Part shown: positions 8,249-54,276 of the stretch, in pieces | How positions within the stretch are numbered: position 1 is the first letter of the stretch | Layout of the letters: every line of letters begins with the position of its first letter | From: an uncultured Gammaproteobacteria bacterium | GTDB lineage: Bacteria > Patescibacteriota > Microgenomatia > UBA8517 | Length of the DNA: 64,000 nucleotides | NCBI GenBank assembly: GCA_964422865.1 | Contig: CAYRCU010000001.1 | Location: 5,159 to 69,158 of the forward strand | Reading direction: 5' to 3' | The notes under the pieces: model-generated | Seen by the model: only the letters and a program-made list of their open reading frames with translations | The model's database searches: none | What the model was told of the DNA's origin: nothing | Translations under genes and position numbers: made by a program

Positions 8249-10114
8249 CTAGCTTGCTTGTAGTTTTTCCTGCATCTCTGTAATATATTCTTCGGCCTTT
8301 ATTGCCCAGGGGTCTGATGGGTTGTTTAATATTTTGTTGTGATTTCTAAAAGCCCGAATAGCTTCTTTGTAATTTCCCAGTTCCTTGTATCCCAGTCCAA
8401 GGTTATAAAAAGCCGGATCGAATTCCGGATCAATAGAAATTGCTTGTTGATACGCTTCAATTGCTTTTTTGTATTTGCCAAGATCCTTAAAAATGTTTCC
8501 AAGTTCATTGTAAGAATAAATAAATTCCGGATCAGTAGAAATTACTTGACTGAAAGCTTCGACAGCTTCTTCGTATCTGCCAAGAGCATACAGGGTGATT
8601 CCAAGTCCGTAGTAAGAGTAGACATATTCCGGATTAATAGATATCGCTTGACTGAAAGCTTCGACAGCTTCTTCGTATCTGCCAAGAACGCTTAAGATAC
8701 TTCCGGTGTTTTGTAGGATGTGAGACTGTAATCCACCTTCCGGTTTGAATAAAGTTATGCGAACAGGCTCTTTAGATGAAGGGTATTTTATATCGAGATG
8801 TAAGCCGCCGTCTTCTGAATGATGCGCAAGGCCTATAATGTCCTTGACACATATACTATTTCCTGATATTTCTTTGTCTGTTACTTCATGATTGCTCAGA
8901 TAGCCTTCTGATGGAGTAAAATCCCGCCAAAATACTTTTCCGTTACTTGTAATTAAAAAAGTTAACGAGTGATTGGGCACATCTGCGTGGAGGTATTTTA
9001 TTCCCACTTCATCAAGCAGTCCTCCACCTAAAATTGATGCTCCGACACAATTTATGAACTGTGTCTCGACTATCTTTGATGGATAATTTGAGCTGCCGTC
9101 AACCTCATCCGAATGTTTATACGGAAAAGCGCAAACGGCTTTTTGAATTTTTCCTGCTATTTCTAATTCTTTTTTGGCAATAGCATGAACGTCTTCTGAT
9201 TTTCTCACTCTTTCCAATTCCCGTTTTAGTCTGGGGATTTTTAAGACATCGTAAAGCCTTTTTTGCTCCGCAGATATTTTTAAGCCGAGTTCGTGTATTA
9301 CCGTAACAGGTGCTTTAACTTCCATCACCAACTTTTCTATCCCTCTTCTAAAAATGGCTGTTTTCATTTCTCTTTCCGGAGTTTCAATCGTCTTTACTAT
9401 CTGTCTTTTTGATTTCTCTTGAAGGCGTTGGATTGGTCCTTTTTTTGTTTCCCATGGTTTTTCTCCGTCGGCCCTGTATCCTTTTCTGGAAAGTGCCCCA
9501 AAGTACACTTGAAGCGACTTGATTCTTCTTTTTTCAATTTCATCCGGAGAAGGGTTTTCTCCCAATCTTTTTACCCTTTTTTGGTAAGTCGCTTCTCCGA
9601 GAAACCATTCGTCAAGTTTCTGTTTGTCTTCTTCGGTTAATGCTGTTTTGCGACTGTTTTTTCTTGTTAAAAAAGAGCCATATGCGTGAAACTCACGGGC
9701 AATTTTTCTTGCCAGTTCACTGCCGTCTTCAATGTGTGGGAGATATTCTTCCAAATACAAGCCCGCTTTTTTGAAAGTTTCACCCAGTTTGAAAATTTCT
9801 TTTGCCCTTTTTTCGCGCAACTTGGGTTTTTTGGCATAGGTGCCACGGTCAACTGCTTTTATCACATCTACCATCTCCCATAACTGTAAATCACGGGGAA
9901 GAAATAATGTTTGCCCTCCTTGGTCATTTTTTTCAAGGATTTTTCTCCTACCCCTTTGCTTCCACCGCTCTCTTGAAATGAAGCGCGGCTCTATGGAATC
10001 ATTTATTTCGCACCACTTGGCAAAAAATTCCTGGGCGGGTGATTCGGAAAATGGAGTTTTTTCTACTGCTTTCCGTGTTTCCCAAATAAGCTCTGATTCA
10101 AAATTACCGGTCAT
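8249..10114 (-). CDS. Large protein with a transglutaminase-like Cys-His-Asp core and C-terminal TPR repeats
   Basis: Central NCVGASILGG...HADVPNHSLTFLI...WRDFTPSEG resembles the transglutaminase/papain-like catalytic triad spacing. At least three TPR repeats (GRYEEAVEAFSQAISINPEY...). Confidence 0.5.
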   Translation of the reverse strand: MTGNFESELIWETRKAVEKTPFSESPAQEFFAKWCEINDSIEPRFISRERWKQRGRRKILEKNDQGGQTLFLPRDLQLWEMVDVIKAVDRGTYAKKPKLREKRAKEIFKLGETFKKAGLYLEEYLPHIEDGSELARKIAREFHAYGSFLTRKNSRKTALTEEDKQKLDEWFLGEATYQKRVKRLGENPSPDEIEKRRIKSLQVYFGALSRKGYRADGEKPWETKKGPIQRLQEKSKRQIVKTIETPEREMKTAIFRRGIEKLVMEVKAPVTVIHELGLKISAEQKRLYDVLKIPRLKRELERVRKSEDVHAIAKKELEIAGKIQKAVCAFPYKHSDEVDGSSNYPSKIVETQFINCVGASILGGGLLDEVGIKYLHADVPNHSLTFLITSNGKVFWRDFTPSEGYLSNHEVTDKEISGNSICVKDIIGLAHHSEDGGLHLDIKYPSSKEPVRITLFKPEGGLQSHILQNTGSILSVLGRYEEAVEAFSQAISINPEYVYSYYGLGITLYALGRYEEAVEAFSQVISTDPEFIYSYNELGNIFKDLGKYKKAIEAYQQAISIDPEFDPAFYNLGLGYKELGNYKEAIRAFRNHNKILNNPSDPWAIKAEEYITEMQEKLQAS

Positions 10115-10138
10115 TTTGTGTTATATATTATTCCACAT

Positions 10139-10475
10139 TTTTGTCATTTTTGCTTCCTTTGTCATTTCTGCCCCTCATTGTCATTACCACCTCCCCCCAT
10201 TGTCATTCCCGCGAAAGCGGGAATCTAGCGGGAGTGACGGGAGAGTTGGGGATGCCCCTGGATTCCCGATCAGGTCGGGAATGACAGGGGGAAAAGTTGG
10301 GAATGACTGGGGAAAAGTTGGGAATGACGGGGGGGGAAAAGTTGGGAATGACAGAACACGCTCATTGTCATTCCCGCGGAAGCGGGAATCTAGAAGAAAT
10401 AGTGGGTTGGTCTGGAAGTGTTCCTGGATTCCCGATCAGGTCGGGAATGACAGGGGAGAAGTTGGGAATGACAGA
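10139..10475. repeat. Composite intergenic repeat array: TTGTCATT iterations, two copies of a GNRA-loop hairpin, two copies of a second hairpin, and tandem about 20-bp GGGGAAAAGTTGGGAATGAC units
   Basis: TTGTCATT starts at 10141, 10159, 10178 and 10200. Hairpin ATTCCCGC-GAAA-GCGGGAAT at about 10205-10224, and its copy with a GGAA loop at about 10368-10387. Hairpin ATTCCCGA-TCAGG-TCGGGAAT at about 10262-10282 and 10426-10446. The GGGAATGAC(A/G/T) motif recurs at least 6 times. Confidence 0.8.
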
Positions 10476-11083
10476 TTGGGAGTAGTAGTGAGATAATTCC
10501 AAAGCAGTGGGAGAGTTCCTGGTGGAATTGAGGCTGTTTTTGAGGTTGGTTTTGGTATATTTGAAAACCTTTCCCCAATTATTTGCATAACATCTGGGTC
10601 GTTTTTAATCTCGGACTTTCTTTCAAATCCCCTTCTGACTCTTTTGTTTAGTCTTAGCAGAGCTTCTTGTTTTTTTTCCGGAGTTTGGGCAACAACCATT
10701 TGAATTATGTCTGCTGCAGCTTGTTGAAGCCCCCTACCTCTTGTATATTCGTTTTCACCTATCCTACCTGCCCCATGCTTTTTGCCTGTTTCGTAGCAAA
10801 ATTTAAGAAAATCAGATAATTCTTCTTCTTCACCAAACACTGCAAGCATTGCATGAACCCTGTCTGAATCGTCCGGCCTGTCTGTTCTAAGATCGTCCGG
10901 CCTTGCGCGAAATTTGGTGGCGGCAAGGGATATCCGATCGTGTTCGGACAGATCGAGATTTAATCCTGCTTCTTTCAAAGCAGTCCTCATTGCCTCTATC
11001 TCTGCCTGTGTGAATTCGGTTATTTCCTGCGCGCTCCGCGGGTCTTTGGATCCCAGCAATGCAATTTTTTGTTCTGCCGACAA
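10436..11083 (-). CDS. Hypothetical protein whose C-terminal about 18 aa are encoded by the repeat array
   Basis: 215-aa ORF. The tail ...PNLSFPTSPLSFPT is translated from GGGAATGAC repeats, suggesting a repeat insertion into its 3' end. Confidence 0.45.
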   Translation of the reverse strand: MSAEQKIALLGSKDPRSAQEITEFTQAEIEAMRTALKEAGLNLDLSEHDRISLAATKFRARPDDLRTDRPDDSDRVHAMLAVFGEEEELSDFLKFCYETGKKHGAGRIGENEYTRGRGLQQAAADIIQMVVAQTPEKKQEALLRLNKRVRRGFERKSEIKNDPDVMQIIGERFSNIPKPTSKTASIPPGTLPLLWNYLTTTPNLSFPTSPLSFPT

Positions 11084-28111: not shown

Positions 28112-28184
28112 TGACCCCACCCGGATTTGAACCGGGGTTTCTGGGATGAGAACCCAGTGTCCTGAACCACTAGACGATGGGGCC
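28112..28184 (-). tRNA. tRNA-Glu (anticodon CUC)
   Basis: Hand-folded cloverleaf. Acceptor stem GGCCCCA/UGGGGUC. D-stem GUCU/GGAC. Anticodon stem CUGGG/CCCAG with loop UUCUCAU. T-stem CCCGG/CCGGG with loop UUCAAAU. 73 nt, no encoded CCA. Confidence 0.8.
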
Positions 28185-53583: not shown

Positions 53584-54276
53584 ATGAAAAAAGTAGGAAT
53601 AATAGGTGGATTAGGACCGGAAACAACCACCAAATTTTATATGGAGGTAGTGTTTGCGTGCTCAAAAATAGCTGGAAAGCGCCCAAATATCATCATCTCG
53701 AGTGTTGGGCTGCCGCTTGACGTTGAAGAAGAAATCATTGTGAATGCGAAAAATAAAGAAAAACTGCTGCCTTTTCTTGTCGACTCTGCTCAACAACTAG
53801 AGAAGGCAGAAGTTGATTTTATAGTCATTCCCTGCAACACCGTTCATGTTTTTATCGATGAGATAAGAAAGGTAATTAGTATTCCTGTTTTAAGCATTAT
53901 TGAGGAGACTTCTGATTTTTTGAAATCAAAAGATGTAAAAAGAACAGGACTTTTGGGAACTCAGATGACCATTAAAGAGAAGTTGTTTGATAAAAAATTA
54001 AGCGAGAACAAAATTGAAATAGTTACTCCGAGCAAATCTGGCCAGTTAGAAATGGGGCTAATAATAAATCGTCTGGTTAAAACCTCATGCAACAAAATGG
54101 ATAAAAAAGAATTGCTAAAAATAATCAATGGGCTTGTCGCTAAAAACATCGACTGTGTTCTTCTGGCGTGTACCGATCTACAGCTTCTCGTTAGAAATCA
54201 TAACAAAGTAAGGATTTTTGATACACTTGATATTCTCACAAAAGCAACCGTACGAGAAATAATTGATACCGCTTAA
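53584..54276 (+). CDS. Asp/Glu/hydantoin racemase family protein (aspartate racemase-like)
   Basis: MKKVGIIGGLGPETT..., PCNTVH and LACTDL motifs with two catalytic Cys. Confidence 0.75.
   Translation: MKKVGIIGGLGPETTTKFYMEVVFACSKIAGKRPNIIISSVGLPLDVEEEIIVNAKNKEKLLPFLVDSAQQLEKAEVDFIVIPCNTVHVFIDEIRKVISIPVLSIIEETSDFLKSKDVKRTGLLGTQMTIKEKLFDKKLSENKIEIVTPSKSGQLEMGLIINRLVKTSCNKMDKKELLKIINGLVAKNIDCVLLACTDLQLLVRNHNKVRIFDTLDILTKATVREIIDTA

Follow-up and report, generated by a model that had tools for sequence, protein, structure and literature searches.

Among the repeats closest to those described here are the CGTC-tagged REPs, which were defined, with the families CGTC-1 and CGTC-2, by Di Nocera, De Gregorio and Rocco (BMC Genomics 2013; PMC3733652). 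They combine a CGTC or TGTC tag, an 8-9-bp stem starting from AT, a 4-5-nt loop and a CCA-like tail of about 3 nt, they occur mostly as head-to-head dimers, their Neisseria members are the dRS3 repeats, and a dedicated enzyme was stated as not known at the time (PMC3733652). In Neisseria, dRS3 together with RS elements of 30-160 bp builds the NIME, intergenic arrays of 200-2700 bp.

More recently, Chenal et al. (Nat Commun 2025; PMC11893778) defined the Neisseria NTS and the broader Ssn-related motifs (SRM), which flank ssnA, a 94-aa GIY-YIG gene, in an NTS-ssnA-NTS arrangement. SsnA binds the hairpin only as ssDNA and cuts a few nucleotides 5' of the motif, the bases 5' of the palindrome being needed for cleavage and the C immediately 3' of it for binding, and in N. 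meningitidis the enzyme restricts transformation with NTS-bearing DNA (PMC11893778). Cleavage by the N. meningitidis Ssn falls about 3-4 nt upstream of the tag. The GIY-YIG association of CGTC-type REPs, a gap in 2013, is thus already known, as is the kind of repeat that we report below; what is new is its host lineage, an uncultivated CPR bacterium.

Layout of the array and its flanking genes

The array occupies positions 10139-10475 of the window, by which we mean the whole stretch of 64,000 nucleotides that was analysed, and consists of two units of about 90 bp, each with two inverted hairpins, flanked by short tandem half-site units (Table 1). Both units follow the order TGTCATTCCCGCG(A/G)AAGCGGGAATCTAG, a spacer of 29-30 nt and CTGGATTCCCGATCAGGTCGGGAATGACA, and their terminal inverted repeats of 11 bp read TGTCATTCCCG and CGGGAATGACA. 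The two hairpins of each dimer lie head to head, on opposite strands and with the tags outward. Their anatomy comprises an unpaired (C/T)GTC tag, an 8-bp stem starting from ATTCCC, a 4- or 5-nt loop and a C(C/T)AG tail, and in all four of them TGTC precedes a perfect 8-bp stem and C follows the palindrome.

Table 1. Features of the repeat array and the genes on either side of it (window coordinates)
Feature	Position	Strand	Content
Unit A	10198-10290		Left and right hairpin with spacer (repeat finder)
Unit B	10363-10456		Left and right hairpin with spacer (repeat finder)
5' trail of left hairpin A	10139-10200	+	Three degenerate half-sites (GTCATT at 10143, 10161, 10180), 18-22 nt apart
Left hairpin A	10201-10228	+	TGTC tag, 8-bp stem ATTCCCGC/GCGGGAAT, GAAA loop, CTAG tail
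Spacer of dimer A	10229-10257		Degenerate half-site-like GGGAGTGAC at 10230-10238
Right hairpin A	10258-10286	-	TGTC tag, stem ATTCCCGA/TCGGGAAT, 5-nt loop, CCAG tail
5' trail of right hairpin A	10287-10353	-	Three tandem units, GGGGAAAAGTTGGGAATGAC on the + strand
Left hairpin B	10366-10393	+	Like left hairpin A but with GGAA loop; fits the dRS3 pattern
Spacer of dimer B	10394-10423		Sequence unrelated to spacer A
Right hairpin B	10424-10452	-	100% identical to copy A; loop gives TGA stop
Trail unit of right hairpin B	10453-10475	-	One unit, GGGGAGAAGTTGGGAATGAC; translated within the ORF tail
Hypothetical gene	10436-11083	-	Last 12 codons (LSFPTSPLSFPT) and stop read from the array; no Pfam family
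TPR-repeat gene	8249-10114	-	Downstream; array occupies its upstream region

Most of what an earlier note had described from the letters alone was borne out. The two perfect 8-bp-stem hairpins that it listed in two copies each were found at 10205-10224 and 10370-10389 (left palindrome, ATTCCCGC-GAAA/GGAA-GCGGGAAT) and at 10262-10282 and 10428-10448 (right palindrome, ATTCCCGA-TCAGG-TCGGGAAT), and structure prediction folds all four with the perfect stem (-9.0 kcal/mol for left hairpin A). The three tandem units were also recovered as three copies of GGGGAAAAGTTGGGAATGAC at 10288-10307, 10309-10328 and 10333-10352, with a variant at 10453-10472 (TRF period 21, 3.4 copies); in the left trail, the filler is pyrimidine-rich and the period is 18 (TRF, 2.4 copies). 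The half-site units carry GGGAATGAC or GTCATTCCC and recur every 18-24 bp, in agreement with the spacing of about 20 bp given earlier. The accompanying count of at least ten copies of the 9-mer holds when one mismatch is allowed, not for exact copies alone, as GGGAATGAC, counted on either strand, has eight exact and two one-mismatch copies within 10139-10475. The only exact copy in the rest of the 64 kb, at 53824, lies inside coding sequence, has no hairpin and is a chance match. Against chance expectations of 0.49 and 0, respectively, TGTCATTCC occurs in six exact copies and the dRS3 pattern ATTCCC-N8-GGGAAT twice, and the whole array region folds much better than its shuffles (z = -4.9). The repeats are therefore confirmed as real and far beyond chance, and no other SRM-type hairpin or similar close inverted repeat was found elsewhere in the 64-kb window.

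The two genes on either side of the array are co-directional on the minus strand, and the array directly precedes the start of the TPR gene, as noted earlier, and lies 3' of the hypothetical gene. The TPR protein has its homologues in CPR/Patescibacteria MAGs. For the product of 10436-11083 there is a single distant homologue, P0002 (31% identity, in another context), whose alignment reaches residue 199 and which ends 3 residues later. Since P0002 ends near the point where the repeat begins, the last 12 residues of the product (LSFPTSPLSFPT) are repeat-encoded, and the stop TGA (10436-10438) lies in the loop of right hairpin B. The idea that the array supplies the 3' end of this ORF, for which a comparison of ortholog C termini had been suggested, was right about the origin of the tail and wrong about its length, given as about 18 codons and actually about 12 plus the stop. 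We propose that the annotation of the deposited 215-aa protein mark its final 12 residues as repeat-derived. Among known repeats, Rickettsia RPE-4 and RPE-6, classed as CGTC-type by Di Nocera et al. (PMC3733652), can likewise sit in ORFs and add residues, as the array here adds 12 residues and a stop; the Rickettsia elements, however, are typically in-frame internal insertions in conserved genes, whereas here only a C-terminal tail is replaced.

NCBI annotates the 215-aa product with its repeat-encoded tail included, and the 218-aa ORF 9840-10496 on the plus strand spans the array as well, which could be taken to mean that the tail is ordinary coding low-complexity sequence, if the array is not simply an assembly artefact. 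We regard this as hardly credible: the distant homologue reaches no further than the start of the repeat, a hairpin loop forms the stop codon, the plus-strand ORF is antisense to the start of the TPR gene, and an independent assembly, strain L160 (see below), reproduces the array, which refutes the artefact. That plus-strand frame, which starts at GTG and runs through the array, is almost certainly spurious and of the kind that yields hypothetical proteins of the 'SFPRKRES / IPAKAGI / GNDR' type in databases.

Family membership and occurrence in other genomes

Aligned with the NTS consensus CGTCATTCCCGCGMAVGCGGGAATCYRG, left hairpin A (10201-10228) agrees at 27/28 positions and left hairpin B (10366-10393) at 26/28. 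The published SRM search pattern, HGTCWYN(0-2)YYVSBRHN(0-5)WNVSBRGN(0-2)RNCYNB, matches the window once, at 10201-10228 (0.09 expected per window), while left hairpin B fails it at one loop position and the right hairpins, with their 5-nt loop, give no match to it; the right type nevertheless shares with the left one the tag, 7/8 stem pairs and the tail. The orientation that characterises NTS and SRM hairpins, tag bases on the 5' side and C on the 3' side, is present in all four. The parts that define CGTC REPs are found in the left hairpins as TGTC/ATTCCCGC/GAAA or GGAA/CTA and in the right hairpins as TGTC/ATTCCCGA/CCTGA/CCA, and both units are head-to-head dimers. The 20-bp dRS3 definition fits both left hairpins, but not the right ones, which have N9 in place of N8.

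Hairpins of this kind are common in other genomes. In a trial scan, GTCATTCCCGCGnnnGCGGGAATCC proved widespread in viral contigs, with matches that include Neisseria-type dRS3 sequences. A scan of species-representative genomes with the right hairpin returned at least 120 matches (L038-L157), all listed ones in MAGs and from very many phyla; those listed include Sulfuricurvum, Bacteroidales, Dehalococcoidia, Rhodoferax, Peribacteria, Saccharibacteria, Paceibacterota, Verrucomicrobiota, Armatimonadota and Nitrospirales. Among the matches listed, the 26-nt motif is nearly invariant and usually present in 1-3 copies per 8-kb locus. At several loci (L053, L080, L129, L143, L176, L180 and L274, with the exact left and right types in the first five) the left type stands before, and the right type after, an ORF of about 95 aa with the Pfam GIY-YIG domain, and the right-hairpin motif itself was found 3' of GIY-YIG genes in L053, L080 and L129. 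Because the right type follows ssn genes in other genomes, we assign it to the NTS/SRM system, which implies that this system includes a partner hairpin with a 5-nt loop that escapes the published SRM pattern. In metagenome contigs, 53/111 left-arm copies are paired with an inverted GAC-tagged hairpin, the median distance being 24 nt (against 4 control windows), and head-to-head pairing is, on the sequences compared, typical of the family. The 20-nt trail unit GGGGARAAGTTGGGAATGAC gave 0 matches in the metagenome-contig scan, a weak result since the collection does not contain L160, which has a match.

As the left hairpins match the NTS consensus and both types bracket GIY-YIG genes elsewhere, the array belongs to the CGTC-tagged REP/dRS3/NTS-SRM family, and its overall layout is that of a NIME or REP cluster. 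The resemblance to Neisseria dRS3/NIME elements pointed out in the earlier note can accordingly be raised to family membership, and the NTS/SRM hairpin family is thereby extended to an uncultivated CPR genome. Compared with NTS/SRM and SsnA (PMC11893778), the locus has the same match to the consensus, oriented tag, palindrome and C after it, the same intergenic, clustered arrangement (337 bp), and hairpins of both types that elsewhere flank the genes of about 95 aa; it differs in that no GIY-YIG or ssn ORF is present in the 64-kb window, in that the right hairpins (5-nt loop, stem ending GA/TC) lie outside the published search pattern, and in its host, a CPR/Patescibacteria MAG of about 40% G+C and not Neisseria or another proteobacterium. 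With the CGTC REPs it has in common the TGTC variant of the tag, the 8-bp stem from AT, loops of 4 nt (left) and 5 nt (right), the CCA-like tail, head-to-head heterodimers and one unit that extends into a coding region, whereas the 2013 survey found five phyla, CPR not included, and called clusters rare apart from Neisseria and Wolbachia (PMC3733652). Like the Neisseria dRS3/NIME, the array holds ATTCCC-N8-GGGAAT twice and mixes hairpins with short repeats in a 337-bp intergenic mosaic beside genes; unlike them, it has right hairpins with N9 between the ATTCCC and GGGAAT halves, belongs to a different phylum and has no filamentous-phage or IS110-type integrase nearby. REP/BIME and REPIN-RAYT elements are comparable in their tagged short palindromes, inverted pairs and clusters with reiterated flanking DNA, and in this class, too, a single-copy nuclease gene is bracketed by its own repeats. 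The tag is, however, (C/T)GTC (here TGTC) and not GTAG, the partner encoded elsewhere is a GIY-YIG nuclease and not an HUH Y1 transposase, and the CGTC/NTS family is not known to transpose; REPIN-RAYT membership was rejected on the tag and the associated genes.

The description of the array as MITE-like was only loosely right: the units end in 11-bp terminal inverted repeats and resemble gene-less NTS-ssn-NTS derivatives, but the flanks (CCCAT/GGGGG and CTCAT/GGGGA) show no target-site duplication, there is no evidence of transposition, and a MITE was rejected given that neither a direct duplication nor an IS transposase was found. The term protein-binding iteron array fared similarly, in that the family is bound by a protein, the published Ssn, which recognises ssDNA and not duplex iterons, and nothing replicon-like lies nearby. 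A 9-mer at a regular spacing of about 21 bp beside hairpins does superficially look like the iteron-plus-hairpin origins of rolling-circle replicons. That the array is an iteron origin, a plasmid or phage Rep-binding site or a CRISPR-like array nonetheless seems to us extremely improbable, given that no gene for Rep, DnaA or Cas is found among the neighbours, which encode the TPR protein, a hypothetical protein, AhpC/TSA and SecA, that the known partner of this hairpin family does not bind duplex DNA, and that a CRISPR would have unique spacers, which are missing from this array with its 21-nt period. An iteron-type origin, with rep or dnaA beside the iterons, was rejected on the same neighbours.

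REPs in other bacteria stabilise upstream mRNA. With the array placed between two co-directional genes, it could in the same way stabilise or attenuate mRNA at the 3' end of 10436-11083, and its ATGACA half-sites, read on the minus strand, could act as -35-like boxes of the TPR gene; promoter-like combinations indeed occur on that strand as ATGACA-17-AAAAAT (10165-10137), about 22 nt before the TPR ATG, and as ATGACA-18-GACAAT (10206-10177). We consider such a gene-expression element unlikely, as terminator-like sites number 0 against 2.1 expected, promoter-like matches number 4 against 1.9 expected, which is not significant, no Rfam family reaches its threshold on the array, and elsewhere these hairpins are found in genomic contexts of all kinds. 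Taken together, the readings as a regulatory element, an iteron array, a coding tail or an artefact are weak or refuted. The ATGACA half-sites (10137-10206, minus strand) match the -35 box at 5/6 positions. An intrinsic terminator was rejected, with no terminator-like site found, as was an RNA gene, with no Rfam match on the array; a permissive scan of 10050-10600 yielded three chance matches far below threshold. A tRNA gene at 28112-28184 (minus strand) is the only match in the window at the Rfam gathering threshold.

Strain L160 and the state of the locus

A JGI contig from an independent assembly (sample 3300033148), which we call L160, encodes a TPR protein 99% identical to that of the window and carries the same array, so that an assembly artefact is excluded. 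The two strains differ in the number of right-trail units, which is two in L160 and three in the window, with a 23-nt indel at 10308-10330. In the 337-nt array they are separated by 14 substitutions, compared with 8 in 1792 nt of the adjacent TPR gene (Fisher p 5e-7), a density about nine times higher that is partly expected of any non-coding DNA. Left hairpin B of L160 has the canonical GAAA loop, one unit of its left trail is a perfect CGGGAATGAC half-site, and some of its substitutions break stems (GATTCCTGC and GCAGGAAT). The near-identity of the trail units, together with the gain or loss of one of them between strains, indicates that the array is currently dynamic. A recombination hot spot, one of the possibilities raised from the letters alone, is plausible in light of the strain-level gain or loss of units, the high divergence and the published role of NTS and Ssn in recombination. 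The strains also differ by an in-frame indel of 57-58 nt (19 codons) near the N terminus of the TPR protein (9993-10050), which is called at 621 aa in the window and 592 aa in L160. No empty site was found; the loci of TPR homologues at about 50% identity (L161 and L162) are not syntenic and contain no hairpins.

The arrangement of the dimers is that which brackets ssn genes elsewhere, so that each unit of about 90 bp resembles an NTS-(ssn)-NTS shell that lacks the gene. We propose that the array is probably a NIME-like cluster of two gene-less head-to-head dimers of NTS-type hairpins, which are, or once were, ssDNA recognition sites of Ssn. By analogy with the published system, the hairpins would extrude when the DNA becomes single-stranded during replication, repair or DNA uptake, and an Ssn-family GIY-YIG nuclease would bind each of them and nick a few nucleotides 5' of the tag. 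Nicking would shorten or break single-stranded recombination substrates, which would make the locus recombinationally unusual and unstable, and the cluster would have rewritten the C terminus of the upstream ORF 10436-11083. We infer that this genome has a cognate Ssn and that the sites are cut in vivo. Against this reading we count that the 64 kb hold only one SRM locus, with four hairpins, and no Ssn ORF, and that the right hairpins depart from the published SRM pattern.

The first two of these points also feed the main rival, which is not exclusive of our proposal and which we hold possible, if doubtful: the array would be an orphan selfish repeat, the decaying non-autonomous remnant of a horizontally acquired NTS-ssn-NTS, with no partner nuclease and no function beyond instability. 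Besides the single locus and the missing ssn gene in 64 kb, this would suit the stem-breaking substitutions in the sister strain, the near-identical hairpins found at low copy number across many phyla among the matches listed, and the lack of an array upstream of the TPR homologues of about 50% identity. Decay is at odds, however, with the four window hairpins, in all of which the 8-bp stem is still perfect and both the tag and the C that follows the palindrome are retained, and with near-identical trail units of which one was gained or lost between strains; moreover, the absence on which the remnant is argued was recorded in the 64-kb window, a minor part of the genome.

Half-site trails on the 5' side of the hairpins

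Each trail unit combines the tag with the 5' half-stem and some 12 pyrimidine-rich nucleotides. Defining a half-site as GTCATTCC without the 3' half-stem, and scoring its position relative to full hairpins on the NTS strand in the loci fetched, we found half-sites almost entirely on the 5' side: 39 versus 2 on the 3' side for 120 hairpins in viral contigs, 20 versus 1 for 178 hairpins in genome (MAG) loci, and 10 versus 3 for 173 hairpins in metagenome loci, or 69 versus 6 for the 471 hairpins combined (binomial p ~1e-14). Across loci, Neisseria-type ones included, the half-sites are spaced 15-26 nt apart, and 5' trails are present at the Neisseria-type loci L003, L016, L028 and L034 as they are here. 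A C-rich composition as a general feature was rejected, with G-poorness limited to the 10 nt beside the tag.

On repeats beside the hairpins, Di Nocera et al. say no more than that flanking DNA is reiterated in REP clusters (PMC3733652), and in the main text of Chenal et al. (PMC11893778) the word 'tandem' does not appear and 'half' refers to split-site oligonucleotide assays. The bias of half-sites toward the 5' side, on which Ssn cuts, is possibly undescribed, and it is the only feature of the locus that a specialist might find new.

The trails are presumably local duplications made at or near a nick or stall site. Nicking or fork stalling at an extruded hairpin, followed by strand-displacement repair, could duplicate the segment from the nick to mid-stem, and each unit might then offer an additional 'first half' for pairing with the single 3' half-stem, which would create an alternative cut site. 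The units, however, imply a left breakpoint 11-14 nt upstream, compared with the published cut at about 3-4 nt, so that a model of duplication from the nick does not fit simply. We put forward, as an unlikely possibility, that half-site units are an in vivo footprint of Ssn activity from Neisseria to CPR bacteria and provide extra alternative cut sites. Were this footprint real, trail length would record Ssn activity, and the system would also operate in CPR bacteria, where it could control incoming ssDNA if these bacteria take up DNA. A one-sided trail whose copy number differs between strains may hint at the effect of the nuclease on chromosomal DNA in vivo.

Three minor observations concern the trails. 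Canonical G-quadruplex motifs (G3+ N1-7, four tracts) number just two in the 64 kb, and the right trail (10277-10346, plus strand) is one of them; such a structure would lie opposite the NTS strand of right hairpin A, on its complement, and could help to keep the cleavage side single-stranded. A 7.5-kb metagenome contig (JGI Ga0326726_10012340; L184:550-5960) has five or more NTS-type hairpins, all on one strand and all with a C-rich 5' half-site trail, and its stretch ccccccattGTCATTCCcgcgaaagcgggaatcta is identical to 10193-10227 of the window; the contig may derive from a related lineage with many such loci. Finally, in a Peribacteria MAG (L047:3000-3110) a run of N that marks a scaffold gap abuts a perfect half-site trail of three 23-nt units, and such trails may break short-read assemblies.
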